Origin: Gammaproteobacteria bacterium
GTDB lineage: Bacteria > Pseudomonadota > Gammaproteobacteria > Xanthomonadales > Marinicellaceae
Reading direction: 5' to 3'
DNA length: 64,000 bases
NCBI GenBank assembly: GCA_041395445.1
Contig: JAWLAO010000009.1
Span: 6,150-70,149, forward strand
This document shows, piece after piece, positions 14,168 through 29,197 of the stretch. A model generated the notes under the pieces. That model had not been told where the DNA came from. It ran no database searches and saw only the letters and a list, made by a program, of their open reading frames with translations. Within the stretch, counting starts at the first letter, position 1; each line of letters opens with the position of its first letter. Made by a program: the position numbers and the translations under genes.

Positions 14168-14227
14168 AAAAAGCCCCTTAAAAAAATAATTTCCTAAGAG
14201 GCTTTATTTGAAACGCTAATAACTAAT

Positions 14228-14644
14228 TTATGTGATTCTGATTATAAAAAGTAAGAGAGCTAAGCCTATAGCAACCAGACCTAGTTTTTCCTTCAGAGAC
14301 TCAAATTTACCAGCTGTACTGTCAACAAACTCTGATGCTTTATTCTCACCCATAAGGCTTTTTAATAAACTTTTAGACATCATCAATGCTAGAACAATTA
14401 ATACTACAATTGCAACCAAATAAATTATTGTCAACACCGGAACCCATTTCAGCCTTGTGCCAAGATTAAAGAGAAGTTCAAAAAACCAGTATAAACCTAG
14501 AACAAGTGAAACAAGCCCAATCCAACCTTCATAAGGTTTTGAAAACTCAAATGCCACTTTACTTTGTTCGATTTTGCTCTGAATGAATCCAGATGCAGCA
14601 ATCGCCCCGACAATAATCATAGTTAACAAAAACACCCAAAACAT
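14228..14644 (-). CDS. Small integral membrane protein (about 4 TM)
   Basis: 138-aa hydrophobic ORF, last gene of the minus-strand run downstream of the radical SAM gene. Confidence 0.55.
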   Translation of the reverse strand: MFWVFLLTMIIVGAIAASGFIQSKIEQSKVAFEFSKPYEGWIGLVSLVLGLYWFFELLFNLGTRLKWVPVLTIIYLVAIVVLIVLALMMSKSLLKSLMGENKASEFVDSTAGKFESLKEKLGLVAIGLALLLFIIRIT

Positions 14645-14709: not shown

Positions 14710-15108
14710 TTATTCTTCTTTCCAAACAACGGGCTTCCAGTTTTTCACCTCTTCATCACTTGAATCAAAGCCAAGATAATATGTTTTGCCCGATTCAACC
14801 GTAATATTGAGCATATTGTTCACATTATCTGTTTTTCTCTTTAAAGATTTTTGAGTTCCCGGAGCGGTGTTATTTAATATCACCGGAGCCAACCTCAATT
14901 GATACTCGCCAGGCTTTAACCACACTGCATTTTCACGAGGGGAAACTAAATCGCCATTGACCTCTTGAAGAATAACAGATGAAATTCTTTGTGTTGACTT
15001 ATTGGATTTTAAAACGAGCTTTGCGGCATCATCTCCCGGATTCGCAAAATAATCACCTGCAAAAGCTAGGGCTGAAACAAATAACATTGAAACTAATAAC
15101 TTTTTCAT
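14710..15108 (-). CDS. Small exported protein of unknown function
   Basis: Signal peptide MKKLLVSMLFVSALAFA, taken from the internal ATG at 15108. Beta-rich sequence with no motif recognised. Confidence 0.6.
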   Translation of the reverse strand: MKKLLVSMLFVSALAFAGDYFANPGDDAAKLVLKSNKSTQRISSVILQEVNGDLVSPRENAVWLKPGEYQLRLAPVILNNTAPGTQKSLKRKTDNVNNMLNITVESGKTYYLGFDSSDEEVKNWKPVVWKEE

Positions 15109-15177
15109 AAGACACCTCAATTTTGGTTTGTAATTGATATATTAATTTAATTAATCTTAACCAAGACTGAATGATTG

Positions 15178-17697
15178 CTACACTTTTGATTTTGCGCGAG
15201 ATATTGAGGAATCTAGCTCCCAAAAGTACTGATGGGAGTCATATTGTAAAGATTCATAATTGATATGAGCCATCAATCCGGGATCATCTATACTAAATGT
15301 GGCATTACCAAACTCATAAAGTTTCTTACGTTCATCATCTGTTACCGACAAATTGTGTTTAAAATAATTCTCACAATCATATTTCAACTCGATTGACAGA
15401 GGATAATCACAACTATCAACAGGCATACAGGACTGATTTAATTTTATGATTTCGGATAATTCTTGAGTATTCACTTGAGGATAAGTTTTCACGATATACT
15501 CACTAATTTCAGCATAAAACCGATACCAACCCACCGGAATGAATTTTGCTGTATCAAAATACCGAAACACCCAACTCGTAAACGGAAGTTCTTCAGTATT
15601 GGAGTTTATTTCCATCAATAAATCGTGTAAAAAATCTATTGCCTTAACTTGATACTCCCATTGCAAATATCTCATGACATATCTCAATACAGAGTATCCA
15701 TCAGCAATCATGTAGTAACGATTCAGTTGCTTCATCAGCTTGAGTTCGTCTTCACTGAAACTGAAAGACGATATGATGAAATCATTTTCATCAGTTTTAA
15801 TCTGATACTTTTCCAAATATTCCGGATTTGCCATGGGGCTATTCGGTAATAACTGAGTTGGATAGGCTTTGACCGACACATCCAAATCCATATATCTTTG
15901 CAAGTCATTTTTAAATGCCTGAACAGTAATTCCCGGCAGCCCTATCATTAAGTCTGTTGATAATGGCAGATTCAAATCAGAGAATACTTGAGCCAGTTCA
16001 TCATATTTTTCAGTTTTGATGTTTTTCCTGTTGATAACTTCTAGAGTTTTTTCATCTGTAGTTTGTATTGATATGATACCCTGACTGACAATTTGACCTT
16101 CTGTAAATATTTTAATAATTTCTGCCAGCCTCCAGGTGGAATTTTTTGTATAGTTAACAACCACTTCTTGAGGAAAACCATGCTTTTTCTTCATTTCAAC
16201 AATAAAGGAAGCCAATTCAATATCTCGGTCATACATACCGAAATTGGCATCGGCTATCCATAAAATCTTTGTCGATTTTTCAGCTATCCAACGTATTTCG
16301 TTTTTTACTCGCTCTAAATCGTATTTTCTGACTTTTTGACTGATAGCCGAACCCCAATCACAAAATGTACATCCAAAAGGGCATCCGCGATTTGATTCCA
16401 CAATCGCTGCATCAACCCGTCCGTCATAGCCATCAAATGTACCCTCAATGTAAGGGGATGGAATTTGGTCAGGTTCAGCCATTCTCTCTCTGTTAGCAGT
16501 TTTAATATATTCTCCATCTTGATTCGGATGGCGATAGGTGATGCCCTGTACTCCACTGAGCTTTTCATTATCGAACTCCAACCGATTATGATTTATCAAA
16601 ATACTATCTAAAACCTCACAAATTGTAACTTCGCCCTCATTATGAACAGAAATATCAACTGAATTATTTTTGTTCATAAAATCCCTGCTGGCTTGTAAGT
16701 AATTGGGAGTACTCGGTCCGCCATGAATTGTTATGTTTTCCGGATTGTGATTTTTAACTAATTTTGATATTTTCAAATTCAAATCAATTGACCACATATA
16801 GTTGGAAAATAACCATATCCCTTTACCAAATTTTCTATAAACCTGATTGAGCAGTACTTCAGGTGTGAAATACGAAATTGGAATGAAATTGAATATTTTT
16901 TGAAGTCTTCCACCATCATAGTGACTTAGAGAGCTGTGCAAAAGCCCTAATGCCAAAGGATAATGATTTTCCATGTGTGGAACAAAATAGACAGGGATCC
17001 TGTTATCAGATTCTAAGTCCTTCCAGCTTTGCTTTTGAGAAACTTGATTTTCCTGTTTAATTTGACTGGTCGTCTGCAGAGAAAGAAATGGGTGTTTTAC
17101 TTCTTCAATAATTAATTTCTTTTCTGCCAATTGGTAAAAGATTTTCTCTACATCTTCTTTTTTGATAATACCTAATTCGGATATCACTTCATTCATTGTT
17201 TTTCTTCCAACCACAGAAGATAAAACCAATAAATATTCTAACGGTAACTGATAATATTCTTCTTGATGAGAAAGACTAATCAGAAAGCCTTGTTCAGAGA
17301 CAAGAAGAGCAAAATTATTGCTGAGTTTGTATTTCTTTTCTACAGAACATTTAGAATCAGTTACTGGCAAACTATTAATTTTTTTTATATCTTTACAATT
17401 CGTTAAATAGTCGCCGGTAGTATTTGCATTGACTAATATAGAGTGCTCAATGTAACCCCTGATTTTATTTTCTGCAAACCGTATATCTTCTTGTTGTGTA
17501 TAAACATCTATAAATTGAAGTCCACTGACAAAACTATCAACGGACTTCTTTATTGTACAAGGAGTTATAAAGTTGTTTAAAATAATCAAATCTACCGACT
17601 CCATTCGGTATTTTTTATCAATTGAACTCAAAGAGTCAGTAATAAACTGACCATCTTTTTGTAAAATGATTATTTCAGGATTGAGAATGTATTCCAA
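15178..17697 (-). CDS. Radical SAM enzyme with a cobalamin-binding-like domain and a roughly 205-aa N-terminal extension
   Basis: CxxxCxxC cluster ESNRGCPFGCTFCDWG, with Cys codons at 16360-16383. The preceding Rossmann-like segment (IPVYFVPHMEN ... ITIHGGPSTP) is typical of B12-binding radical SAM enzymes. No SPASM-type Cys cluster is present at the C-terminus. Confidence 0.85.
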   Translation of the reverse strand: MEYILNPEIIILQKDGQFITDSLSSIDKKYRMESVDLIILNNFITPCTIKKSVDSFVSGLQFIDVYTQQEDIRFAENKIRGYIEHSILVNANTTGDYLTNCKDIKKINSLPVTDSKCSVEKKYKLSNNFALLVSEQGFLISLSHQEEYYQLPLEYLLVLSSVVGRKTMNEVISELGIIKKEDVEKIFYQLAEKKLIIEEVKHPFLSLQTTSQIKQENQVSQKQSWKDLESDNRIPVYFVPHMENHYPLALGLLHSSLSHYDGGRLQKIFNFIPISYFTPEVLLNQVYRKFGKGIWLFSNYMWSIDLNLKISKLVKNHNPENITIHGGPSTPNYLQASRDFMNKNNSVDISVHNEGEVTICEVLDSILINHNRLEFDNEKLSGVQGITYRHPNQDGEYIKTANRERMAEPDQIPSPYIEGTFDGYDGRVDAAIVESNRGCPFGCTFCDWGSAISQKVRKYDLERVKNEIRWIAEKSTKILWIADANFGMYDRDIELASFIVEMKKKHGFPQEVVVNYTKNSTWRLAEIIKIFTEGQIVSQGIISIQTTDEKTLEVINRKNIKTEKYDELAQVFSDLNLPLSTDLMIGLPGITVQAFKNDLQRYMDLDVSVKAYPTQLLPNSPMANPEYLEKYQIKTDENDFIISSFSFSEDELKLMKQLNRYYMIADGYSVLRYVMRYLQWEYQVKAIDFLHDLLMEINSNTEELPFTSWVFRYFDTAKFIPVGWYRFYAEISEYIVKTYPQVNTQELSEIIKLNQSCMPVDSCDYPLSIELKYDCENYFKHNLSVTDDERKKLYEFGNATFSIDDPGLMAHINYESLQYDSHQYFWELDSSISRAKSKV

Positions 17698-17712
17698 CTG
17701 ATTTTACCTTGC

Positions 17713-19680
17713 TTAATGCCCTATGTTTTCATCAAGAAACTTTAAGATTTTTTCATAAAGTTCGATACGATTTTCTATTTTATGAAAGCCATGACCTTCT
17801 TTCTTTTTATAAATTGTTTCATAAGGCTTACCAGCTTCTTTTAATTTTTTCTCCAAGAAGTATGCATTTTCAATTGGAACCCTAACATCATCATGACCAT
17901 GAACTAATAATAATTTGGCTTTAAGTTTATCAATATGATGTGCGGGGGATATTTTAGGCATTACATTTTCGTAATCATCTCCCATCATTTTTTTCATGTA
18001 GTACTCTTTCTGTTTAGTTCTACCTCCTTTAAAAGAATCCGCTTTTTTCCATTGTAATTCAACATCGTAGATACCCGCATCCGGTATCGAACATTTATAT
18101 AAATCCGGTTCTTTTACAACTGCTTGCATGGACGCATAACCACCGTAACTCACTCCATGAATACAAACTCTATCTTTATCAGCATAACCTTGATTGATTG
18201 CCCAATGAGTTACATCTGTTAAATCATCCTGCATTTTATAACCCCACTCTTGATCGCCGGCTTTCTCAAATGGCTCACCATACCCACCGGACCCACGATA
18301 ATCCAATTGAATCACCAGGTAACCTCTGTTTGCCAGCATTTGTGCTCTGTTATCCCATCCCCAATAATCTTTTGCTCCATAAGGGCCACCATGTGGATAA
18401 ATAACCAATGGTAGATTTTTTAATTCTTTCCCAGGTGGAATCGTCATTTGGCCATACATTTTTAAGCCATCTCTGGCATTCATAATGAATGGCTCTACAG
18501 AAGCCATATCTTTTGGCTTAATACTCGGTCTGGAGCTTGCTAAATATTTTGCACTATTTTTCTTCCTGTCAAAAATATAGAAATCTCCGGGATTTTTATC
18601 ACTATAAACATGAACTGATGCTAAATCCCTTTTTTTGTTATAATTATAAACAGTTACGTTTTCGTTTTTAAATGCTGCTCTTAGTGACTTATGGAATCCA
18701 ATTTCTTCATTTAACTTTTCATCTTTCAAATAAAAATAATTCCGATAGCCTGCATCATAATAAACTCCCAGCATTTCTCCTTCAGATCCGACAACAGAGC
18801 CAGCTATATCAACATCCGGATGTCTAAATAACTTATCAATCTTTTGAGTTTCAATGTTGAATGAAAATAATCCTAGTGTCCCGCCATCTTCTAAATCATG
18901 ATCAGATACAAAATATAATATTCCATTGTTTTTATGAATACCTATAAATGAGACAACTGGTACTTTTTTCTTTACTTTCGGCAATTCCAGATGATGCCAT
19001 TCTTGATTAAAGTCTTTATAGTGTAAATTGACTGTATCATCATCAAAATTGTTTCTGTCTTTTGGATCGTATTCAAATGCAATTCTTGGCTTTTCATTTA
19101 AGTCCACATCAATCGAATAAATAACAGAATCTCTACTCTCTCCAACCGGTTTCGGAGAATCATCAACATAAATTGTTTTTCCAGTGTAGACATTTAACTT
19201 AACTAAATTCCCTTCGCCTTTGTCTGTATAATGTCTTTTCAGCATCAATACATTTTTTGGATCATCTTCCAAAAGTGATACCATAGATAAACTTGCCATT
19301 TGATAGAGCCATAGATTAACCCTCTTTTTGCCATCTATATCTACTGCAAATAGAATTGGGTCTTTTCTGGCACCATCAAGCCAACCTGTTATATTTGATG
19401 CCAGAACTAATATTCTTTCATCATTAACCCACCAATATTGTGAGACTTCTCGCTCCTTGCCTACATCAAAGGTAAATACTCCTTTTTTGTTTTTTATATC
19501 CATGATTCCGAGCTTAATTTCAGTTTCATCTTCATAGGTGTATGCCAAATGTTTACCATTCGGCGATATTTTTATATTATTAATTTGTGATTTCTGGGCA
19601 AAGTCTTTTAGTGGAATTTCTTTTGCTTGAATTGATGTAAAAACAAAGAAAATCAGACTTAATATGATAATTTTTTTCAT
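17713..19680 (-). CDS. Exported S9 family serine peptidase (prolyl oligopeptidase/dipeptidyl peptidase type)
   Basis: Signal peptide MKKIIILSLIFFVFTSIQA, an N-terminal propeller-like region, and a catalytic triad read as GVSYGGY, HGHDDVRVP and EGHGF. Confidence 0.9.
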   Translation of the reverse strand: MKKIIILSLIFFVFTSIQAKEIPLKDFAQKSQINNIKISPNGKHLAYTYEDETEIKLGIMDIKNKKGVFTFDVGKEREVSQYWWVNDERILVLASNITGWLDGARKDPILFAVDIDGKKRVNLWLYQMASLSMVSLLEDDPKNVLMLKRHYTDKGEGNLVKLNVYTGKTIYVDDSPKPVGESRDSVIYSIDVDLNEKPRIAFEYDPKDRNNFDDDTVNLHYKDFNQEWHHLELPKVKKKVPVVSFIGIHKNNGILYFVSDHDLEDGGTLGLFSFNIETQKIDKLFRHPDVDIAGSVVGSEGEMLGVYYDAGYRNYFYLKDEKLNEEIGFHKSLRAAFKNENVTVYNYNKKRDLASVHVYSDKNPGDFYIFDRKKNSAKYLASSRPSIKPKDMASVEPFIMNARDGLKMYGQMTIPPGKELKNLPLVIYPHGGPYGAKDYWGWDNRAQMLANRGYLVIQLDYRGSGGYGEPFEKAGDQEWGYKMQDDLTDVTHWAINQGYADKDRVCIHGVSYGGYASMQAVVKEPDLYKCSIPDAGIYDVELQWKKADSFKGGRTKQKEYYMKKMMGDDYENVMPKISPAHHIDKLKAKLLLVHGHDDVRVPIENAYFLEKKLKEAGKPYETIYKKKEGHGFHKIENRIELYEKILKFLDENIGH

Positions 19681-19700
19681 AATTTTTTCCTTTTTTCGAT

Positions 19701-20642
19701 TTATTTAATAAAAGTGTATAAAACACCACTATTTTGGTTACTGTTGTAATATATATCTTTCTTTGTTTGAAGTTTGAGTCCTTTTTCTTCGAAAGCATGA
19801 TACCAATTTGGGTTGTTATTAATTCTTTGTGCGACTGATAACAAATCATTCATTCTCAACTCTGCGAATTGAAGTTGTGATACAAAACCAATAATTCTTT
19901 CTTTATTTGCAGTTAATTCAATTTCTGACATGTGATACAAATTATCCATGAGCATTAAAACAGAACGAAGTAATGGGGAGTTTAATTTTTGAAAATGTCG
20001 TACAATTTCTGGCTGAATTTTTTTAAGTTTATCTCTGAAATCAAAATAATCATTCTTTCCTGTATAAAATTTTCTAACTTGACTGAGCAACTCAGAGTTT
20101 GAGAGAATCAGATAGTCATTTCTTTCAACTTCCATTTGTTTAATGATGTCGGTCGAGCCACTATGAGAAATCATTGTGAACTCTCCTCTCTTTTTTAATA
20201 ATTGATAAACTTTATCAGCTGCAATTTTCCAATCACAGTATTCAATACCGTATTGGCTGGTTATTAAGTCAAAATTTGCCGAAGCTAATTCTAAATCTTC
20301 TAAATATGTGTTAGCTACAATTTCTATATTTTGTATATCCCTTTCGACAACAGGGAATCGTTCAATAATTTGCTTTTTATTTATATCTGCCGCATCAGTC
20401 GCAGTGACTTTGAAATTTTTATCAAAATTTCTGGAATATTGTGATGCTAGAATTGAAACGGCACAATTGCCGGCACATAAATCTAAGATTTTTGAATTAT
20501 TACTTAAAGTCTTAAATCTACTCTCCCAAGCATCTAAAATTTCGCCACTATAATTTTCCACAAAATCTTGTGGTAACGAGGTTAACTGACCACTTTTCCA
20601 GTATTCGCTCCAATGTTGTGACTTGTTATTACCATCGTCCAT
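19701..20642 (-). CDS. Class I SAM-dependent methyltransferase with a roughly 140-aa C-terminal extension
   Basis: Motif I ILDLCAGNC, an N-terminal HWSEYW segment, and an acidic post-I residue. The start overlaps the upstream stop by 14 nt. Confidence 0.75.
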   Translation of the reverse strand: MDDGNNKSQHWSEYWKSGQLTSLPQDFVENYSGEILDAWESRFKTLSNNSKILDLCAGNCAVSILASQYSRNFDKNFKVTATDAADINKKQIIERFPVVERDIQNIEIVANTYLEDLELASANFDLITSQYGIEYCDWKIAADKVYQLLKKRGEFTMISHSGSTDIIKQMEVERNDYLILSNSELLSQVRKFYTGKNDYFDFRDKLKKIQPEIVRHFQKLNSPLLRSVLMLMDNLYHMSEIELTANKERIIGFVSQLQFAELRMNDLLSVAQRINNNPNWYHAFEEKGLKLQTKKDIYYNSNQNSGVLYTFIK

Positions 20643-22179
20643 TTAGTTTACCTTTAATCATTGATTTCAGTTCCTTGAGTGAGTCGCCATATTTTTTATA
20701 ATGCTTAACTGCTTTTTTATAAATCGGTTGGGAAACTTGAGCAGCACTTGCTGTATTAATACTGCGTTTGGTTTTATAAAAATTCATGCAGTTAAGCTCA
20801 AATTCTAAATTTAGAAAGTCTAATAATTTTCTAATTTGTAAATCAGGGTTTTTCACAACCTTTTCATATTTCACAGTATGAATTTGCTTAGGAAAATATT
20901 TCTTCCAAATTTTTACCATTTTTTTTTCAAAGAAATGATAATCAACTAATTCTTTCAAGTTAAAGCTATATTCGTTTCCTTGTGCAAAGTTCTGTTTGAA
21001 AGTACTTAGACAAACATCCATCGAGTTTCTCTTTGTGTGAATGAAACGAGCATTCGGATTTGTCATTAAAATAAAGCCCAAATATATAAAATTTGCATGG
21101 TATTTATCTGTAAATATATTTGTTTCTTTATGATATTTACTAGTATTTATTAAGTAATTCTCACCAAGCTGCATCAATTGTTTATTATTTAAATTCGTAA
21201 GCCCATGAGGAAATCCCCCCTTAAGGTCTTGCATTATATTTTTCAAAGCTAGCAGTTCACTTGCCCCTGTTACTTTTGAATGTGTTGCAACTATTTGTTC
21301 AACCAAAGTGGAGCCTGATCTTGGCATTCCAGCAATGAATATGGGAATATTTTCATTATCACTTATTTGAGCTTGATTGAAATCATCGTATTTGTTTTGA
21401 AATATTTTTTTAATTTCATTGTATAATTTTTTCCAATCAGTTGGTGCACGGTTAAAGCTTATAAATTTAATTTCATTGGCTTTAGTTAGGATATCGAATG
21501 ACTTTTTATACTTTTTATTATCTTCTAAATATTTTGCTTTTGCAAAAAGAAGAGTTTGGATATCCCTATGATAAGTTACTTTTTCAAGCATTTGCTCAAT
21601 AAAAAGTATCTCGTCATTTTTAAATTTGTATGTTTTTAAATCAGCAAGCATCCAGTAAACTTGCGGTTGGTACGGGTTGATAGCTAATGCCTTATGAATT
21701 TGTTCAACTGCTTGTTCCGTTTTTCCATTATTTTTTAACAATAATGCATAATTTAATAAACAATCAATATACTGAGGTTGGAGCTCTAGTGTTTTTAAAA
21801 AATGGACTTCAGCTTTTTCAAAATTATTTTGTGCCTTAAATAAATTTGCCATCAAATAATGAGCTTCCACCGAGTCAGGAGATATTTCTAAAACTCGAGA
21901 TACAAGCTTAATACCTGTTATATAATCAGCTTTAATTTGTTTAATGAAAGCTAAGTTCAGAAGAGTTTGCTCATGGTTTTTATCGAGTACTAATGCTTGT
22001 TTAAAACTCTTTTCTGATTGTAATAACTTCTTTTCATGTAGAAAAATAATTCCTATTAAACGATAAAGCTCAGGATCTTTTTTATTTTTTTTTATTAAAG
22101 ATTTAAGAAGTTTATGAGCACTTGAGTATTGTTGTTGCTGAAGAAGTAAGTCGATGTCCTGTTGTAATTGACCATTCAT
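20629..22179 (-). CDS. TPR-repeat sulfotransferase
   Basis: About 270 aa of TPR repeats, followed by a sulfotransferase domain with the PAPS-binding loop IAGMPRSGSTLVEQ. Confidence 0.85.
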   Translation of the reverse strand: MNGQLQQDIDLLLQQQQYSSAHKLLKSLIKKNKKDPELYRLIGIIFLHEKKLLQSEKSFKQALVLDKNHEQTLLNLAFIKQIKADYITGIKLVSRVLEISPDSVEAHYLMANLFKAQNNFEKAEVHFLKTLELQPQYIDCLLNYALLLKNNGKTEQAVEQIHKALAINPYQPQVYWMLADLKTYKFKNDEILFIEQMLEKVTYHRDIQTLLFAKAKYLEDNKKYKKSFDILTKANEIKFISFNRAPTDWKKLYNEIKKIFQNKYDDFNQAQISDNENIPIFIAGMPRSGSTLVEQIVATHSKVTGASELLALKNIMQDLKGGFPHGLTNLNNKQLMQLGENYLINTSKYHKETNIFTDKYHANFIYLGFILMTNPNARFIHTKRNSMDVCLSTFKQNFAQGNEYSFNLKELVDYHFFEKKMVKIWKKYFPKQIHTVKYEKVVKNPDLQIRKLLDFLNLEFELNCMNFYKTKRSINTASAAQVSQPIYKKAVKHYKKYGDSLKELKSMIKGKLNGRW

Positions 22180-22268
22180 AAAAACTATAATATTTTTAAA
22201 TATGTAATTTTATGAATTATAGTCTATTTAATCATTGAAGAAAACTTGAAATAAAAATCCGACAGAAT

Positions 22269-22298
22269 AAAAAAGGGCATAACGAGTATGCCCTTTTT
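22269..22298. terminator. Bidirectional rho-independent terminator after the TonB receptor gene
   Basis: AAAAAA-GGGCATA-ACGAG-TATGCCC-TTTTT. It reads as a hairpin plus U-tract on both strands. Confidence 0.8.
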
Positions 22299-22319: not shown

Positions 22320-24950
22320 TTAGAAAGTTTGAGTATATCTGAAGTAAGTCACACGACCAAAACCATCATATAAATAATAGTCATAATCACGATCACCAAT
22401 CGCACCTAAACCGATAGGAGGATATTTTTCAAATAGATTTCTTGCACCTACTGTAAACTTACCATCCCAAGGAGCGTTGTAGTTGAACTGTAGATCATGA
22501 GTTGTCCAAGAAGGAGCCGCATCATAAGTACTATCAGCTGTTTGAGAATCAATATAATTGATATTCCAAGCTACGTTCCAATCTCCATACGAATAAGTAT
22601 TATTCAATATAGCACGGTGAGAAGGAAGACCTGCTTCACCAGCTGTATCGCGACCACCATCAACAGAAGAGTCTAATACATGTGAAATTTGGAAATTATT
22701 AGAAACCTGACCACCTAAGAACTCATAATTGAACCTTACATTCAAATCAAGACCAGATGTTTCAACAACACCTTGGTTACCGAAACCTCTAACAATTCCA
22801 GTAATACGACCTGTAGTTGAGTTACGATTTACAGACAATCCAGGAGGCAATTCCAAACCTTCATTCCCTAGATAGATTAAGTATGCAGAAGTGAATGAAC
22901 GAATTCTATTGTCAATTTCGATATTATAATAATCCAAAGTCATGTTCATCCAATCAACAGGCTCATAAGCAAGTCCTAAAGAGTATTGCTTAGAAGTTTC
23001 TGCTGACAAGTTTGGATTAGCTGTAACTGTTGCATCAACTTGTACACGACAACCTGCTGCCTGACCTAAAGCCAAACAAGTAGGATCATCTTGAATAGTG
23101 TCTGCTGAGAAAGAATCTTTCTGAGTTAAGATATCCAAAGTTGGAGCTCTGAAACCTTCACCATAAGAAGCACGTAAAGTCAGATTATCCAATGGTTGAT
23201 AACGGAAAGAAACTTTTGGTGAAAACTCACTACCAAAATCAGAATAATCGTCATAACGACCAGCTAAAGACATTTCCAAATTAGGTAGGAATGGAACCAA
23301 TGCTTCGAAGTAAATCGAATCTACGTCGCGATTACCCGCTGCTGAGTTACCAGCCGAACCACCGATTTGGCCAGCTTCTGACAATGAATCATATTGATCC
23401 GAGTATTTGATTTTTTGTGTTTCAGCACCGACATATACAGATACTGGACCATTTTCCATTTCAAACATATCAAATGCAACAGAACCAAACATCTCATCCA
23501 AGTCATATTTACTGATTCTTGAAATAACAACTTTCATACTGTTCAGAGTTGTTGGCGAGTTACCATACGGATTCCATAGGTCATAAGCACCAGACTCAAT
23601 TGCTGCACGAGCAGCTGAACGTAACAAGTAGTTGTTACCAATGTCAAAAGTTCTGTTGTTAGAACGTGTTACACCAAATTCAACTTCAGCATTACCAATA
23701 TTACCAGTTGTACCCAATTGGAATCTTGTCAGTCTGTTAGTTACAGTACTGTCACGATTTCCAAGTGCGTCATAACGGTGATAAACCGCAATCGGCTGAT
23801 TCACTACCGGTTGACCATATAAATTAGTCAAGTTAGGATTATAATATGGTGAACTTGGATTGGTTGGATTGTTTGGGCTACTTGCAGATACATACGCATA
23901 ATCAGGAACCGGAGCATAACGTCCGAAAGATTCTGTTTCTGCAACAGAAACATTCATCCAAACCTGCCAGTCATCATTCACGTCATAAGAACCTTTCGCA
24001 TAGAAAGACTGGTTATCAGTTGACGCATCATCAGCAGATACCGAAGCAAAATTAAAACCACAGAAAGGCAAACCTTGCGAGGTAGTTACTGGAGTGAAAG
24101 CCGTACCCGGGAAGTTACAAGCACCAGGCAATGACTGCAAAAGTATATCATATTCATAAGCACCTGTATCAGGATTAACTGTATTTCCTGTAACAAACCA
24201 ACTTTCCATGTTATTGCCATATGTCGAAAGACCTGGCGAATACCATGGATAATCACGTGCAAAAACAATTTCACGACTATTCCATGAAACACCTGCTAAT
24301 AAACGTGAACGGTCACCTGAAGCACCAAATACGATAGAACCTTCTTCTCTGTCACCGCCATGAGCAGGAATAGAAGCTTCAGCTCCACCAATCATCATTT
24401 CAACACCTTGGAAATCAGTACGTAAAATTACGTTGATTACACCACCGATTGCATCTGAACCGTAAATCGCAGAAGCACCATCAGAAAGAACTTCAATTCT
24501 TTCAATCGCACCAGCTGGAATTGTGTTCAAATCTTGGTTGCTACCAGTAGATGGCGAAGCAGGTAGTCTACGACCATCAATCAGCACCAATGTTCTTGAA
24601 GAACCCAAGCCACGCAAACTAACAGCAGACACACCTTGAGCAGAGCTACCAGATTGTGGACGGAATGAACCCGCACTGTTGAATGTTAAGCTACGAATGA
24701 AGTCAGCAGCAGAAGATTCACCGCTTAATTCAATTTCTTCACGTGTAATTGTAGTTACAGGTAACGCTTGTGCAACGTCAGAACGTTTAATACGTGAACC
24801 AGTAACAACTTGTTTATCAAGTTTTTCTTTATCTGCACCCTCGTCTTCATCTTGTGCGAAAGCTACACCACCAAGTGCAACTGAAGCAACCAGACCAGAA
24901 TACAAAGCAGTTTTAATTGCGCTAGCAATAGGATTACGCTTTATTTTCAT
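22320..24950 (-). CDS. TonB-dependent receptor
   Basis: I prefer the start at 24950 (GGAGAAACAAATG) over the ORF-track start 24974. Signal peptide, TonB-box-like VVTGSRIK, a plug, and a barrel ending FRYTQTF. Confidence 0.9.
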   Translation of the reverse strand: MKIKRNPIASAIKTALYSGLVASVALGGVAFAQDEDEGADKEKLDKQVVTGSRIKRSDVAQALPVTTITREEIELSGESSAADFIRSLTFNSAGSFRPQSGSSAQGVSAVSLRGLGSSRTLVLIDGRRLPASPSTGSNQDLNTIPAGAIERIEVLSDGASAIYGSDAIGGVINVILRTDFQGVEMMIGGAEASIPAHGGDREEGSIVFGASGDRSRLLAGVSWNSREIVFARDYPWYSPGLSTYGNNMESWFVTGNTVNPDTGAYEYDILLQSLPGACNFPGTAFTPVTTSQGLPFCGFNFASVSADDASTDNQSFYAKGSYDVNDDWQVWMNVSVAETESFGRYAPVPDYAYVSASSPNNPTNPSSPYYNPNLTNLYGQPVVNQPIAVYHRYDALGNRDSTVTNRLTRFQLGTTGNIGNAEVEFGVTRSNNRTFDIGNNYLLRSAARAAIESGAYDLWNPYGNSPTTLNSMKVVISRISKYDLDEMFGSVAFDMFEMENGPVSVYVGAETQKIKYSDQYDSLSEAGQIGGSAGNSAAGNRDVDSIYFEALVPFLPNLEMSLAGRYDDYSDFGSEFSPKVSFRYQPLDNLTLRASYGEGFRAPTLDILTQKDSFSADTIQDDPTCLALGQAAGCRVQVDATVTANPNLSAETSKQYSLGLAYEPVDWMNMTLDYYNIEIDNRIRSFTSAYLIYLGNEGLELPPGLSVNRNSTTGRITGIVRGFGNQGVVETSGLDLNVRFNYEFLGGQVSNNFQISHVLDSSVDGGRDTAGEAGLPSHRAILNNTYSYGDWNVAWNINYIDSQTADSTYDAAPSWTTHDLQFNYNAPWDGKFTVGARNLFEKYPPIGLGAIGDRDYDYYLYDGFGRVTYFRYTQTF

Positions 24951-25148
24951 TTGTTTCTCCAAATATTTATCCATGAGTCTCCTCTAAAAAAGTTATTATC
25001 GTGTTAGAAATCCTCTCTTCCGACGGAATATTAACATTTAAATAATACAAAAAAAAGAGTGAGATGCGTTTTTTTTATCTTTTATTAACAAATTTTTTAC
25101 AAAAATACACATTCAATAACAATCACCTGAAATGATTGATTAAAGTAG

Positions 25149-26906
25149 TTATTTTTGCTCATTTAACATTTTTTTAATATTTGACAACTGGTCGTAAAGC
25201 TCTTTTGGAACACGTGAACCAAATTCGTCAAGATATTCCTGAATACTTTCAACTTCTGTCAGCCACGCATCATTATCAACCTCTAATAATTTCTCCAGGC
25301 TTTCTACTGAGAAGTCCAAATTTTCAAGGTTTAAGTCTTTTGTCAGTGGCATATCTCCAATCGGAGACGATTTACTTTCGAGTTTTCCTGAAACACGGTT
25401 AACTATCCACTCTAAAACTCGCATATTTTCACCGAATCCAGGCCACATGAATTTCCCGTTTTCGTCTTTTCTGAACCAGTTAACAGTAAAAACTTCCGGT
25501 AAATTTTGCGCTCTTTCTTCAAAAGACAACCAATGTGACCAATAATCCGCAAAATGATAACCACAAAATGGTTTCATTGCCATTGGGTCTCTGCGTACCA
25601 CACCAACCGCCCCTGTTGCAGCAGCTGTCGTTTCCGAAGCTACAGTTGCACCCATCAACACGCCATGCGCCCAATTACGAGCCTGCGTAACCAAAGGAAC
25701 AAGTCCCGCTCTTCTCCCACCAAATACGATAGCAGAAATTGGTACACCTTCGGCTGCTTCGGCTTTTTCGGAATAACTCGGGCAAGTCTTTGATGAAACG
25801 GTAAATCTTGAGTTAGGATGAGCCGCCGGGCCATTTTCAGGATTAAATTTATTACCTTTCCAGTCATAAACAGGAACTCTGTCATTCAGGCCTTCCCACC
25901 AAGGTTGATTGTCTTCAGTTTCTGCAACATTGGTGAAAATTGCATCCTTATAAAGCATTGCCAAAGCATTAGGGTTGGTTTCATTTGAAGTTCCCGGAGC
26001 GACTCCGAAAAAACCGGCCTCAGGATTAATCGCCCAAAGCCTTCCATCTTCTCCCGGGCGCATCCAGCAAATATCATCTCCTATTGTCGTAATTTTCCAA
26101 CCTTCCTGGACATAGCCTTCAGGCGGAATCAACATTGCCAAGTTAGTTTTTCCACAAGCCGATGGAAAAGCGGCTGCAATATAATGAATCTCACCTTGTG
26201 GATTCTCCAACCCAAGAATCAACATGTGCTCAGCGAGCCAACCTTCGGTTTTTGCTTGATAGGAGCCAATTCGTAATGCATGGCATTTTTTACCAAGCAA
26301 AGCATTTCCGCCATATCCCGAACCAAAACTCTTAATTGTTAGCTCTTCAGGGAAATGCATAATGTATCTTCTTTCCGGATTTAATTCACCAATCGAATGC
26401 AAGCCTTTAACGAAATGGCCTTCTTTTTCAATACGTTGTAGTGCCGGCGCACCCATACGCGTCATGAGTCGCATATTTTGCACAACATACGGACTATCAG
26501 TGATTTCAACACCACATCTTGAAATTGGCGAATCAATCGGCCCCATACAATAAGGAATAACATACATGGTACGACCTTTCATACAACCGCTAAACAGGTC
26601 GTCCATTTTCTCATGCGCATCTTTAGGGTCCATCCAATGATTGTTTGGACCGGCATCTTCTTCATTTTCAGTACATATAAATGTCAGGTGTTCCACGCGC
26701 GCTACATCTTGTGGATCTGATAAATGAAGGAAACAACCCGGATGCGTTTCTTCATTCAGTTTTTTATAATCGCCGGTGGATAATAAAAGTTCATCCAGTT
26801 GTTGTTTTTCTTCTTCAGAACCATTACACCAAACCACTTTTTCTGGTTTTGTAAGTTCTGCAATATGATTGACCCAATTCTCTAGTTCTAATAATTTTGT
26901 TGACAT
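25149..26906 (-). CDS. pckG: Phosphoenolpyruvate carboxykinase (GTP-dependent)
   Basis: 585 aa with the P-loop FPSACGKTN. N-terminal and overall motifs of GTP-PEPCK (YGGNALLGKKC, NWFRKDENGKFMWPGFGEN). Confidence 0.95.
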   Translation of the reverse strand: MSTKLLELENWVNHIAELTKPEKVVWCNGSEEEKQQLDELLLSTGDYKKLNEETHPGCFLHLSDPQDVARVEHLTFICTENEEDAGPNNHWMDPKDAHEKMDDLFSGCMKGRTMYVIPYCMGPIDSPISRCGVEITDSPYVVQNMRLMTRMGAPALQRIEKEGHFVKGLHSIGELNPERRYIMHFPEELTIKSFGSGYGGNALLGKKCHALRIGSYQAKTEGWLAEHMLILGLENPQGEIHYIAAAFPSACGKTNLAMLIPPEGYVQEGWKITTIGDDICWMRPGEDGRLWAINPEAGFFGVAPGTSNETNPNALAMLYKDAIFTNVAETEDNQPWWEGLNDRVPVYDWKGNKFNPENGPAAHPNSRFTVSSKTCPSYSEKAEAAEGVPISAIVFGGRRAGLVPLVTQARNWAHGVLMGATVASETTAAATGAVGVVRRDPMAMKPFCGYHFADYWSHWLSFEERAQNLPEVFTVNWFRKDENGKFMWPGFGENMRVLEWIVNRVSGKLESKSSPIGDMPLTKDLNLENLDFSVESLEKLLEVDNDAWLTEVESIQEYLDEFGSRVPKELYDQLSNIKKMLNEQK

Positions 26907-26926
26907 AATACTGTTGTTTTTGAAAC

Positions 26927-27799
26927 TTATTTAATTCTTGACAAGATACCTTCGAGTTCATCAACCGAGTGATAGCTGATGACTAATTTACCTTTACCTT
27001 GTTTACTGTGTTGAATACTGACTTGTGAACATAGTTTTTCTGAAAGATCATGTTCCAGCTTCCGGATATCGGAATCTTTTTGTGATTGTGTTTTCTGTAC
27101 TTTTTCAGCACCATAATTTTTAACAAACTGCTCTGCTGCACGAACCGTCATTGATTTATTAATCATTTCCATGGCTGCTTTAAGCTGTAAACTTTTATCC
27201 AGTGCAAGCAGAGTCCGAGCGTGCCCCATTTCCAATTGTCCATCATCCAGCAGCTTTTTAACATCTTTATGCAAATCAAGTAATCGCAATAAATTACTCA
27301 CGGCAACTCGTGAACGCCCGACAGCTTCTGCGGCTTGTTGATGCGTTAAATCAAATTCTTCGATGAGCCTTTGTAAAGCCAATGCCTCTTCCAACGGATT
27401 AAGATCTTCTCGTTGAATATTTTCAATCAACGCCATTGCAATTGTTTGCCTGTCATCAGCTTGTTTGATAACAACAGGAACCTTGCTTAGCTCAGCAATT
27501 TGTGCAGCACGCCAGCGACGTTCGCCGGCGATGATTTCATATTTATTTTTTCCGATGCTTCTAACGATAACCGGCTGAACCATGCCTTGAGCCTTAATTG
27601 AATCAGCCAACTCTTCCAACTTTTGAGCATCCATCTTGGTACGAGGCTGATATTTTCCCGGCTGAATCAGCTCGATTTCCAATTCTGTGAGAATGTTGTC
27701 GTTATCAGATTGAGTAACTGACGAATCCCCTTTGGTATTTGTTTTTGAGCCAAGAAGTGCGTCAAGCCCTCTTCCCAGTCCTCTTTTCTTTGTTGCCAT
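26927..27799 (-). CDS. parB: Chromosome partitioning protein ParB
   Basis: GLGRGLDALL, IIAGERRWRAA and an HTH region. Confidence 0.95.
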   Translation of the reverse strand: MATKKRGLGRGLDALLGSKTNTKGDSSVTQSDNDNILTELEIELIQPGKYQPRTKMDAQKLEELADSIKAQGMVQPVIVRSIGKNKYEIIAGERRWRAAQIAELSKVPVVIKQADDRQTIAMALIENIQREDLNPLEEALALQRLIEEFDLTHQQAAEAVGRSRVAVSNLLRLLDLHKDVKKLLDDGQLEMGHARTLLALDKSLQLKAAMEMINKSMTVRAAEQFVKNYGAEKVQKTQSQKDSDIRKLEHDLSEKLCSQVSIQHSKQGKGKLVISYHSVDELEGILSRIK

Positions 27800-27800
27800 G

Positions 27801-28574
27801 TTAGTTATTTCCTCTTATCACTTCTCCTGCTAACCCGAGGTAAGCAATGGCTCCACGTGAAGCAGAGTCATATTCGATAACCGACATTCCATGTGACGGA
27901 GCTTCAGCAACACGCACATTTCTGGGAATCACAGTCACATAAACTTTTGAATCGAAATGTTCAAGCAATTGTGACGAAACATCATTTGCCAGATTGTTTC
28001 TGCCATCAAACATAGTACGGATAATTCCTTCGATTTCCAAATCAGGATTTGCAGTTGATTGAATTCTTTCAATAGTCTCAAGCAAAGATGCCAAACCTTC
28101 CAAGGCATAGTACTCACATTGCATCGGTATCATTACACCTTTTGCAGCGACCAAGGCATTGACTGTTAAAATACTGAGTGAAGGCGGACAGTCAATAATA
28201 ATGTAGTCATAATCTTTGTTGAGTTTAGCTAGTTGCTTTCTGAGAACAGACTCAGGGTTTTGTTGTTCCATTAGTTGTAATTCAGCAGCCGTTAAATCTG
28301 TATTTGAACCAATCAAGTCAATCCCGGTATTCTCTGCTGTTAATACAACTTCATTTATATCAACTTCCTGAAGCAACATATCACAAGCATTAGGCTCAAT
28401 TTCTCTGGAATCAAATCCACAACCCATAGTTGCATTTCCTTGCGGATCTAAATCAATCAACAAAACTGATTTTTTTAAATGAGCCAAACCGACAGCCAAA
28501 TTGATACTGGTTGTGGTTTTACCAACACCACCTTTCTGATTTGCTACCGCAATTACCTTGTTCTTTTTGTTCAT
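27801..28574 (-). CDS. parA: Chromosome partitioning ATPase ParA/Soj
   Basis: Deviant Walker A NQKGGVGKTT, and the typical length. Confidence 0.95.
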   Translation of the reverse strand: MNKKNKVIAVANQKGGVGKTTTSINLAVGLAHLKKSVLLIDLDPQGNATMGCGFDSREIEPNACDMLLQEVDINEVVLTAENTGIDLIGSNTDLTAAELQLMEQQNPESVLRKQLAKLNKDYDYIIIDCPPSLSILTVNALVAAKGVMIPMQCEYYALEGLASLLETIERIQSTANPDLEIEGIIRTMFDGRNNLANDVSSQLLEHFDSKVYVTVIPRNVRVAEAPSHGMSVIEYDSASRGAIAYLGLAGEVIRGNN

Positions 28575-29197
28575 ATTTTTGTAAAAACCAACAACCGTCT
28601 TTCTGCATCTAAAAACGGAACTTTAATATCAATATCTTTTTCCAAATGAAATCCTATTTGTTCAGAATTTTGTTCTGACTCAACTCTTGGTCCTTTCATT
28701 GCCAATACTCTGCCATTATCCGAACAGAGATGCCCTGCAAGCTTTAAAAAATTGCCCACCTCAGAAAAGGCTCTGGATATTACCACATCATAACTCGATT
28801 GGGGATGATAATTCTCAACTCTGCTGCAAACAACCTCAATATTTTGCAGATTGAGCTGTCTTTGCGCAAATCTCAGAAATCGAGTTTTTTTATGACTGGT
28901 ATCTAACAAAGTAACAAACAAATCAGGATTGAGTATTGAAAATATAATTCCCGGAATTCCACCACCGGTTCCTACATCAATGATTGAGTTTCCCTGCAAA
29001 TAACGATAAACTGCAGCACTATCAATAACGTGTAAAGTAATCATTTGAGAAAGGTCTCTAATCGCTGTCAAATTATATGTTTTGTTCCACTTGTCCAATA
29101 GATAGACAAATTCTAATAATTTTTCAGCATGACCGGTATCAAGGTTTAGCTCATTCAGGCTTTCAGTCATAAGCCCAACAAGCGAGTTTTTATTCAT
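28571..29197 (-). CDS. rsmG: 16S rRNA m7G527 methyltransferase RsmG (GidB)
   Basis: SAM motif DVGTGGGIPG. It lies upstream of parAB and overlaps parA by 4 nt. Confidence 0.9.
   Translation of the reverse strand: MNKNSLVGLMTESLNELNLDTGHAEKLLEFVYLLDKWNKTYNLTAIRDLSQMITLHVIDSAAVYRYLQGNSIIDVGTGGGIPGIIFSILNPDLFVTLLDTSHKKTRFLRFAQRQLNLQNIEVVCSRVENYHPQSSYDVVISRAFSEVGNFLKLAGHLCSDNGRVLAMKGPRVESEQNSEQIGFHLEKDIDIKVPFLDAERRLLVFTKI

Follow-up and report, generated by a model that had tools for sequence, protein, structure and literature searches.

A conserved gene cluster of marine Gammaproteobacteria combining a TonB-dependent receptor, a class I methyltransferase and a putative cobalamin-dependent radical SAM methylase with a predicted RRE-like N-terminus

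TokK and CysS, two radical S-adenosylmethionine (SAM) enzymes that depend on cobalamin, are both iterative methylases of sp3 carbons, and in each of them a tryptophan (Trp76 in TokK) sits under the corrin; in the cystobactamid pathway the class I methyltransferase CysF installs a methoxy group, which CysS then extends iteratively (PMC12846815). Neighbourhoods of genes for TonB receptors, Trp-halogenases, SapC, 2-oxoglutarate (2OG) dioxygenases and sulfotransferases were described by Iyer, Abhiman, de Souza and Aravind in 2010 as sources of peptide-derived, siderophore-like metabolites, and these were computational predictions without a known product (PMC2938197). Here we analysed a 64,000-nucleotide stretch (the window) of a Marinicellaceae genome (contig JAWLAO010000009.1, positions 6,150 to 70,149), in which genes for a TonB-dependent receptor (TBDR), a sulfotransferase with tetratricopeptide repeats (TPR; ST), a class I SAM methyltransferase (MT), an exported S9 serine peptidase (S9) and a radical SAM enzyme (rSAM) follow one another on the minus strand. 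Our results showed that they belong to an undescribed cluster of chromosomal genes that is conserved in marine Gammaproteobacteria; TBDR, MT and rSAM form its conserved core, and ST and S9 are recurrent accessories. We tentatively favour the reading that the cluster is a receptor-linked module for tailoring a peptide akin to the ribosomally made, post-translationally modified peptides (RiPPs) by C-methylation, heteroatom methylation, sulfation and periplasmic trimming, the substrate being encoded elsewhere.

The rSAM belonged to a family of 2285 homologous clusters of about 840 aa, which aligned over the full length in the protein search with a mean column identity of 62%. Its start codon was TTG, at a position that agreed with the N-termini of the homologues. 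The Radical_SAM model of Pfam matched with an E-value of 1.6e-17, and C439, C443 and C446 of the cluster motif CPFGCTFC (residues 439-446, nt 16360-16383) were invariant in 22 sequences. Comparison with solved structures showed that residues 228-628 matched TokK (5.9e-70, 240 bits) and CysS (1.1e-61, 212 bits); residues 228-430 aligned unbroken with the cobalamin-binding domain of TokK, from TokK residue 12, and a conserved C-terminal domain ran on from residue 628 to 839. The invariant Trp302 (SNYMWS, 16789-16806) aligned with Trp76 of TokK and Trp75 of CysS. The NCBIfam model of KedN5 (NF033712) matched with 1.2e-73 over model positions 16-585 of 624, and since its 248 bits lay far below the cut-off of 700, the rSAM was regarded as a relative of the KedN5 family that is distinct from it. 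A preliminary description of the locus had called the enzyme B12-type; this held, on the basis of the full-length homology to TokK and CysS and of the KedN5 model, not of the B12-binding domain of Pfam, for which no match was found in the rSAM. Judged from sequence, the enzyme is a putative cobalamin-dependent (class B) methylase, like TokK, CysS and KedN5 rather than PoyC. The comparison with the polytheonamide enzymes made earlier was thus not borne out: the model TIGR03975 gave 42 bits where its cut-off is 282, the enzyme fell into a different clade, and no NHLP- or Nif11-type precursor was present, although the chemistry proposed here is that of PoyB and PoyC, in which a cobalamin-dependent radical SAM enzyme methylates unactivated carbons of a ribosomal peptide.

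With the TokK/ThnK/CysS/KedN5 clade the rSAM shared the cobalamin and radical SAM domains, the invariant CxxxCxxC, the tryptophan under the corrin and the long C-terminal domain. Like CysS with CysF, it is paired with a class I methyltransferase, and this documented pairing is a direct precedent for the conserved pair of MT and rSAM (PMC12846815). Unlike the rSAM, however, TokK, CysS and KedN5 are without the N-terminal region of about 225 residues with its two predicted modules, and their genes lie in nonribosomal peptide synthetase (NRPS), polyketide synthase (PKS) or carbapenem clusters of actinomycetes and myxobacteria, whereas the rSAM gene adjoins a TBDR gene in marine Gammaproteobacteria.

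Of the new arguments that the substrate is a peptide or protein, the strongest came from structure prediction for this N-terminal region. An AlphaFold model of the first 220-225 or so residues, made with 15 sequences (pLDDT 81, pTM 0.79), consisted of two tandem β3-α3 modules, and of the 33 top-ranking PDB structures in a Foldseek search about 30 were proteins that contain a RiPP recognition element (RRE), namely ThcOx, TbiB1, a lasso B1 protein, MccB, TigE, PqqD, McbB, SuiB and PbtF. The TM-scores normalised to the RRE targets were 0.60-0.70, with 0.70 for TbiB1 and the lasso B1 protein, and the match probability reached 1.0. When the domain was searched against 1.84 billion representative proteins, all 39 matches were members of the same rSAM family and fragments of them. 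Its column identity was 33%, compared with 62% for the whole rSAM, and such fast evolution is the pattern expected of a leader-binding module; at the same time it was kept at full length across the family, which argues against a useless relic. The predicted tandem points to a peptide or protein as the substrate. The RRE-bearing RiPP maturases resemble the rSAM in this predicted fold, in the tandem arrangement (ThcOx has two RREs) and in the fusion to a radical SAM enzyme (SuiB, TigE), but the module of the rSAM differs from theirs in that it is confined to one family, has no sequence similarity to PqqD and has no precursor gene nearby. In the literature searched we found no description of an architecture such as the one predicted here, with two RRE-like domains fused to a cobalamin methylase of the TokK/CysS type.

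The MT, the specific partner of the rSAM, gave only weak matches to Methyltransf_25, Methyltransf_11 and Methyltransf_31 in Pfam, with the SAM motif LDLCAGNC at residues 53-60 and a helical lid domain at about residues 165-276. Its family is narrow, comprising 77 clusters, and was found essentially only in rSAM clusters. An invariant motif, HWSxYWxxGxLTSLPQDFxxNY(D/S)G, at residues 8-31 preceded the Rossmann fold, and SQYGIEY was invariant as well. Thiopurine and thiol methyltransferases have Trp-rich N-termini to which the N-terminal motif bears a loose resemblance, but the TPMT model of Pfam gave no match. The AlphaFold2 (AF2) model of the MT was confident (pLDDT 92), and its structural matches were generic class I methyltransferases (phosphoethanolamine N-methyltransferase, RebM/AtmM and Coq5) that indicated no specific function.

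The ST matched Sulfotransfer_3 (4.7e-36, 1-215 of 216 positions), Sulfotransfer_1 (1.6e-13) and many TPR models, the repeats lying at about residues 10-230 of an N-terminal part of about 270 aa. Both the 5'-phosphosulfate loop (GMPRSGST, residues 284-291, nt 21307-21330) and the 3'-phosphate motif (RNSMDVCLS, within residues 381-392, nt 21004-21039) were found, as in enzymes that depend on 3'-phosphoadenosine 5'-phosphosulfate (PAPS), and the protein is predicted to be one of these. The TPR domain, as a peptide-binding module, points to a peptide or protein substrate like the RRE-like domains of the rSAM.

The S9 protein carried a signal peptide, a β-propeller and a C-terminal α/β-hydrolase domain (Peptidase_S9, 3.8e-52, 3-211 of 213 positions) with the catalytic triad S511/D598/H630 in GVSYGG (509-514), HGHDD (594-598) and EGHGF (628-632), and its closest solved relatives were acylaminoacyl peptidases and dipeptidyl peptidases. 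It could remove a leader peptide. Its assignment as Dpp5 or as an Atxe2 lasso isopeptidase was rejected, both NCBIfam models scoring below their cut-offs (Atxe2, NF033523, 53 bits against 400). The TBDR matched Plug (8.8e-23) and TonB_dep_Rec_b-barrel (6e-41), with the TonB box VVTGSRIKR at 24783-24809; no NCBIfam subfamily reached its cut-off and the PDB matches were confined to the plug domain, so that no substrate class was obtained. A receptor of the BtuB type was rejected on the scores of TIGR01779 (117 bits against 600) and PRK10641 (99 against 836) and on the lack of a cobalamin riboswitch in the window and at seven related loci. An interpretation as a siderophore or metallophore locus was rejected as well, no Fur box being found upstream of 26 orthologous receptors and neither an NRPS nor an NRPS-independent siderophore (NIS) synthetase occurring in the window or in related loci.

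A genome scan with one genome per species gave 79 rSAM loci, in Marinicella, Arsukibacterium, Rheinheimera, Glaciecola, Opacimonas, Alteromonas, Planctobacterium, Kangiellaceae, Wenzhouxiangella, Lysobacterales and 'Rariloculaceae'; some counts covered 83 or 88 loci (loci are numbered L001 onwards). Partners were counted in the 63 loci whose rSAM gene had 4 kb or more of flanking sequence on each side. TBDR (48-67% identity) and MT each occurred in 26 of these, TPR-ST and S9 each in 12, and the S9 orthologues occupied three different positions. TBDR and MT flanked the rSAM in at least eight different gene orders. The orders seen in the loci included TBDR-MT-rSAM, TBDR-rSAM-MT, TBDR-MT-S9-lipoprotein-rSAM-TBDR2, TBDR-MT-rSAM-S9-...-ST, ST(reverse strand)-rSAM-S9, TBDR-rSAM-ST-MT, ST-TBDR-MT-S9-rSAM and rSAM-S9-...-ST. 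All five gene types stood together in L014, L047, L080 and L082, with shuffled orders in Kangiellaceae and related metagenome-assembled genomes.

In the clade of the window, represented by five metagenomic contigs, the order TBDR-MT-S9-rSAM was kept, with identities to the window proteins of 62% (TBDR), 47% (MT), 64-67% (S9) and 52-57% (rSAM). Two of these contigs had a TPR-ST in front of the receptor (ParB-PEPCK-ST-TBDR-MT-S9-rSAM, PEPCK being phosphoenolpyruvate carboxykinase), and because this ST was only 26% identical to that of the window and placed elsewhere, it is a non-orthologous replacement, a different sulfotransferase that joined this cluster. Proteins truly orthologous to the window ST (45% identity) were found in Marinicella rhabdoformis (L085) and two contigs (L083, L084), where the order was TBDR-rSAM-ST-MT with the ST adjoining the rSAM. 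Genes in L083-L085 overlapped by 1-8 nt, and ST overlapped MT by 14 nt in the window (20629-20642), by 4 nt in L083 and by 8 nt in L085; overlaps of 1-14 nt indicate translational coupling. The linkage kept despite the shuffling, the ST-MT overlap and the narrow MT family together argue for a functional link between the genes.

These results bear on the preliminary description, which had taken the four genes from ST to rSAM for a tightly packed operon separate from the receptor gene. The packing agreed with the coordinates of the ORF list (besides the overlap, gaps of 20 nt between MT and S9, 19681-19700, and of 15 nt between S9 and rSAM, 17698-17712), the quoted motifs GMPRSGST, LDLCAGNC, GVSYGG/HGHDD/EGHGF and CPFGCTFC were all located at exact coordinates, and the profile searches it had called for gave TPR with Sulfotransfer_3, a weak class I methyltransferase, Peptidase_S9 and Radical_SAM. 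Chance juxtaposition, named there as what would overturn the idea, does not apply, as the order MT-S9-rSAM was kept in the five contigs and ST orthologues adjoined the rSAM in three loci. The four genes are thus functionally linked as supposed, but ST and S9 proved to be accessories and not part of the core, and the separation of the receptor had to be given up: the TBDR was the most constant partner, it lay inside the cluster in close relatives, and in M. rhabdoformis no terminator followed it.

Sulfation and TonB-linked processing of RiPPs have described counterparts. RaxST and RaxX form the tyrosine-sulfated RiPP system of Xanthomonas, and RaxST resembles the ST as a bacterial PAPS-dependent sulfotransferase that in our case possibly acts on a peptide. 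The ST differs by its TPR part, and neither a RaxX-like precursor nor a system of the RaxA/RaxB type was found among the ORFs of 12-27 kb or in related loci; without a precursor or an exporter, the analogy drawn earlier found no support beyond the shared sulfotransferase fold. Clusters of the lasso isopeptidase Atxe2 have adjacent TonB-dependent receptors, and the presence there of an S9-family peptidase and a TBDR beside RiPP maturation genes suggests that a modified peptide may be re-imported and processed. The window differs in having no lasso cyclase, B1/B2 or precursor genes, and its S9 is exported and nearest to acylaminoacyl peptidases. The neighbourhoods predicted in 2010 are similar in the TonB-type receptor with cytoplasmic enzymes that modify amino acids or peptides, the sulfotransferases, the lack of an obvious scaffold gene and the occurrence in gamma-proteobacteria (PMC2938197). 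Trp-halogenase-like, TPR-2OG-oxygenase and Sulfotransfer_1 genes occurred in 3-7 related rSAM loci, whereas SapC was not seen; the window itself is without halogenase, SapC and dioxygenase, and the core of MT and B12-dependent rSAM is not mentioned in the 2010 work. No paper describing this cluster was found in the full-text literature searched, and the earlier statement that it matches no described pathway thus stands.

For the favoured tailoring module we propose five steps. The analysis showed the linkage of the genes, the identity of their domains, the conservation of catalytic residues and the predicted fold of the N-terminal domain; that the substrate is a peptide, how the events are ordered and what peptidase and receptor do is inferred. 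The rSAM would hold a peptide encoded in trans through its two N-terminal RRE-like domains, and its TokK/CysS-like cobalamin/[4Fe-4S] core would, by homology, methylate at least one unactivated sp3 carbon, possibly iteratively. The MT would add an O-, N- or S-methyl group, and by analogy with CysF followed by CysS the rSAM may extend a methyl group placed by the MT. Where present, the ST would dock on the same peptide via its TPR and transfer sulfate from PAPS. The product would be exported by some route and trimmed or recycled by the periplasmic S9, and the TBDR would re-import the product or its loaded form. The preliminary description had left a sulfated and methylated peptide and a small molecule side by side as the thing tailored; the peptide now gains the predicted RRE-like modules in its favour.

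Several results weigh against this tailoring module. The Foldseek E-values of the RRE matches were modest (3e-3 to 0.2), and the assignment, which rests on predicted structure, is for this reason treated as one at the level of the fold. Neither Pfam, searched with 15 members, nor sequence comparison with PqqD gave a match for the N-terminal domain, and a profile search of the PDB returned only a winged helix-turn-helix protein (2d1h, E = 0.1, second module); vestigial RREs also occur in other enzymes. No precursor-like gene was found, in keeping with the earlier note that no precursor ORF was visible: there was none among the ORFs of at least 20 aa in 14.1-25.2 kb, where the gaps within the operon measure 15-65 nt, no credible small gene in the 14 larger intergenic gaps of the window when small ORFs were checked for a ribosome-binding site, no family conserved across genera beside the rSAM among 2985 clustered small ORFs from 83 sources, and, among the small ORFs that share the strand of an rSAM and lie no more than 400 nt from it, listed for all 88 related loci, only lineage-restricted families. 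No exporter (ABC, MATE or peptidase-domain), leader-specific protease or scaffold synthetase was present. The rSAM stood alone within 10 kb in 44 of 83 loci, and in the window a strong hairpin parts the TBDR gene from the enzyme genes. The best match to a Fur box upstream of 26 orthologous receptors was at most 12/19, no better than in shuffled sequences, so that a re-uptake logic of the siderophore type is without regulatory support. Finally, the catalytic core of the rSAM is nearest to methylases of small or carrier-bound molecules and not to RiPP C-methyltransferases, the RiPP-type B12-dependent models giving at most 46 bits (ApyD 46, TIGR03975 42).

The last point leads to the rival that survives best, although we consider it rather unlikely: a non-peptidic small molecule (aromatic, lipid-like or a metallophore) would be tailored, the RRE-like domains being vestigial or binding a partner protein. 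The MT would make a methoxy or N-methyl group, the rSAM would extend it to an ethyl- or isopropyl-type group, the ST would sulfate a hydroxyl, and the TBDR would import the product or a precursor. The closest characterised relatives of the rSAM, TokK (240 bits), CysS (212 bits) and KedN5 (model, 248 bits), all act on small or carrier-tethered molecules, and every RiPP-type model scored 46 bits or less; the MT model matched small-molecule methyltransferases, the lack of a precursor gene would be expected, and the CysF/CysS pairing is a precedent (PMC12846815). Against this, neither the window nor any of the related loci contained a scaffold enzyme (NRPS, PKS or NIS synthetase), two of the enzymes bear peptide- or protein-binding modules (RRE-like and TPR), the N-terminal domain is kept family-wide, and a Fur box is lacking.

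Small proteins encoded at the loci are relevant to a second rival, in which an envelope or exported protein, not a free natural product, would be methylated and sulfated in the cytoplasm before Sec export and the S9 would process the exported protein. Downstream of the rSAM gene in the window lie genes for a small exported protein and a small membrane protein. The former, described earlier as an exported protein of 132 aa, does carry a signal peptide, read from its sequence, and has 132 aa if translated from ATG 15108, but a length of 136 aa from TTG 15120 is given equally. It showed a weak match to DUF2846 (0.0057); a 43% orthologue was found in the same position only in L082, and none in L080 or the 79 genomic loci. 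The 138-aa membrane protein likewise had an orthologue (44%) only in L082. In Arsukibacterium, L025 and L083/L084, though not in the window, the TBDR/MT/rSAM cluster enclosed the gene of a Cys-loop lipoprotein of about 100 aa without a Pfam match. After the lipobox its sequence follows the pattern C-x5-TGS(N/H)-x5-C-x-T-x2-Q-I-(D/E)-x-DR, and its 'VVTGSNRK' resembles the TonB box VVTGSRIKR of the TBDR; the protein could be a substrate or a partner of the receptor. In 11 Marinicella loci, and not in the window, an extremely hydrophobic protein of 74-90 aa with the C-terminus LLLLPLLLLLLLPFCWVS was encoded directly downstream of a solitary rSAM gene, followed on the opposite strand by a gene for a TonB_C-domain protein, two genes downstream of the rSAM (n=11).

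The modification of such a protein, with the Cys-loop lipoprotein, the exported 132-aa protein, the receptor or the TonB machinery as candidate targets, appears improbable to us. It would fit the vertical inheritance of the rSAM, its 62% column identity and the solitary position that it often has amid housekeeping genes, all of which would be expected if the enzyme modified proteins; the persistent ties to the TonB system (TBDR in 26 of 63 loci, ExbB-ExbD-TonB in L015/L048/L049, TonB_C in the 11 Marinicella loci); and the small exported proteins inside the cluster in four lineages together with the lack of a free precursor gene. However, no target is found family-wide, the lipoprotein occurring in three lineages only and the exported 132-aa protein only in the window and L082, and alignment of the receptor orthologues showed only ordinary signal-peptide and TonB-box conservation at the N-terminus. 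The idea is speculative, and we know of no precedent for it.

A third rival denies a single pathway: the TBDR and S9 would form an ordinary unit for scavenging peptides or nutrients, a TBDR with a secreted peptidase being a common nutrient-uptake pairing, and the unrelated ST, MT and rSAM would be held together by synteny near the origin. The hairpin between receptor and enzymes, the count of 12 of 63 loci for both ST and S9, the solitary position of half of the rSAM genes and the solitary ST orthologue of M. litoralis, 85 kb from the rSAM, are consistent with it. Most Marinicella had the solitary rSAM gene among aroK-aroB, and in Glaciecola it stood immediately behind metH, but in a neighbour-joining tree the clades of solitary genes were nested among those with clusters, which suggests that there is probably one orthologous function whose partners were dispersed or lost. 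Synteny alone cannot explain a linkage kept through shuffled orders in several gammaproteobacterial orders, nor an MT family essentially confined to these clusters, nor the overlaps of 1-14 nt, and we regard this explanation as quite doubtful. Hardly more credible is a cytoplasmic system that makes no free natural product but places radical-SAM, methyl and sulfate modifications on components or clients of TonB-dependent transport, in which the RRE-like domains would bind a pre-protein ahead of its export, the periplasmic S9 would complete its maturation and the lipoprotein, its 'VVTGSNRK' mimicking a TonB box, would be among the targets; if true, it would be a new way to tune outer-membrane transport.

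Least probable of all, and by our estimate very improbable, is a 'B12 guild' in which the TBDR imports cobalamin or a corrinoid for the B12-dependent rSAM: BtuB was the best solved plug match (1.3e-19), the TonB-B12 model of NCBIfam was the top match below threshold and the rSAM directly follows metH in about 12 Glaciecola/Opacimonas loci, but the idea was dropped because Rfam searches of the window and of seven related loci gave no cobalamin riboswitch, and, furthermore, CirA and FepA scored the same as BtuB, the BtuB model reached only 117 of the required 600 bits, the TBDR has 884 aa compared with about 600 for BtuB, and the partners MT, ST and S9 and the N-terminal domain would be left unexplained.

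The transcription signals and the surroundings of the cluster were also analysed (Table 1). The strong hairpin after the TBDR gene and the lack of one before the two small genes, both noted in the preliminary description, were confirmed, and no further hairpin was found between the element at 22270-22298 and the terminator at 14170-14205. The promoter proposed for the four genes in 22180-22268 could not be demonstrated: the best match to the consensus was 9/12, and the 56 promoter-like matches of the region were not in excess of those in shuffled sequences (47.6 +/- 6.8). No Rfam family reached its gathering score in the whole 64-kb window, tRNA, riboswitch and sRNA families all being without a match. 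The GC content was 29.3% for ST, 31.3% for MT, 33.9% for S9 and 34.4% for rSAM, compared with 39.8% for TBDR, 42.0% for PEPCK and a window mean of 38.2%; this gradient, together with the non-orthologous ST of the closest relatives, suggests a recent acquisition or replacement of the ST. Directly upstream of the TBDR lie the genes PEPCK(GTP)-parB-parA-rsmG (25149-29197), and the position beside rsmG-parA-parB places the cluster near the chromosomal replication origin. M. rhabdoformis has the same rsmG-parA-parB-PEPCK-TBDR junction, the cluster following gidB-parA-parB-PEPCK; a terminator stands behind PEPCK there, but the receptor and rSAM genes have none between them, and the hairpin of the window is lacking at the equivalent place. 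The parB-PEPCK junction ahead of the cluster was also seen in L070, L080 and L082.

Related loci contained further genes by Pfam, namely stand-alone Sulfotransfer_1 genes, one to three Trp_halogenase homologues (6.9e-133), a TPR-2OG-Fe(II) oxygenase and a DUF3450-ExbB-ExbD-TonB set, the last located after the rSAM in L015/L048/L049. The halogenase, sulfotransferase and oxygenase genes are those of the neighbourhoods predicted in 2010, in keeping with the proposed tailoring module. In the Glaciecola and Opacimonas loci L016, L019-L023, L040, L044, L045, L058, L064 and L069 (about 6.2-12.5 kb), metA and metH preceded the rSAM, which places two B12-dependent enzymes side by side, and an M13 peptidase gene followed on the opposite strand; no riboswitch was found in L020. 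A protein of about 1300 aa was encoded directly after the rSAM in L057, L072 and L077 (Wenzhouxiangella, Lysobacterales); its sequence, read by eye, resembles that of a hybrid sensor kinase bearing a large repeat domain in the periplasm, and the protein could regulate the locus.

Table 1. Features of the cluster in the window, and genes found with it in related loci (positions in the numbering of each locus)
Feature	Position	Strand	Size or stability	Remark	Source
ST gene (TPR-sulfotransferase)	20629-22179	-	516 aa	accessory member	six-frame ORF list
MT gene (class I SAM methyltransferase)	19701-20642	-	313 aa	specific partner of rSAM	
S9 gene (exported serine peptidase)	17713-19680	-	655 aa	accessory member	
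rSAM gene (radical SAM enzyme)	15178-17697	-	839 aa	signature gene of the family	
First predicted RRE-like (PqqD-fold) module	17428-17697	-	rSAM residues 1-90		AF2 model and Foldseek
Second predicted RRE-like module	17104-17340	-	rSAM residues 120-198		AF2 model and Foldseek
Predicted cobalamin-binding and radical SAM domains	15814-17016	-	rSAM residues 228-628		TokK/CysS homology
TBDR gene (TonB-dependent receptor)	22320-24974	-	884 aa	signal peptide; constant cluster partner	
Small exported protein gene	14710-15120	-	132-136 aa	lineage-specific, membership uncertain	
Small membrane protein gene	14228-14644	-	138 aa	about 4 transmembrane segments; lineage-specific, membership uncertain	
Hairpin between TBDR and ST genes	22270-22298	-	-17.2 kcal/mol, z = -5.2	bidirectional; terminator or attenuator	
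Intrinsic terminator	14170-14205	-	-18.9 kcal/mol, z = -5.4	closes the co-directional run after the two small genes	
Cys-loop lipoprotein	L024 9554-9805; L026 9497-9790; L034 9477-9812; L035 9539-9838; L073 9484-9807; L025 4075-4389; L083 5133-5447; L084 7887-8201				
Marinicella hydrophobic protein	L001 7664-7936; L003 12767-13003; L005 9991-10218; eight more Marinicella loci				
Trp_halogenase homologues	L018, L047, L053, L054, L063				Pfam
Sulfotransfer_1, stand-alone	L007, L014, L018, L027, L042, L053		about 278 aa		Pfam
TPR-2OG oxygenase (2OG-FeII_Oxy_5)	L048, L052, L062				Pfam

If the tentative reading of a peptide-tailoring module is right, the cluster would define a widespread, unstudied enzyme family (2285 clusters, 79 species genomes), connect a substrate that is probably a peptide with the iterative sp3 C-methylation known from carbapenem and cystobactamid biosynthesis, and provide a handle on the TonB-receptor-linked tailoring neighbourhoods predicted in 2010, which have so far been without a product. 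Carriers of the rSAM include cultured members of Marinicella, Arsukibacterium, Aliikangiella, Opacimonas, Alteromonas and Planctobacterium. Since cultured strains carry the full cluster, the question is directly testable, and the cluster, while no surprise, offers a good lead for experiments.

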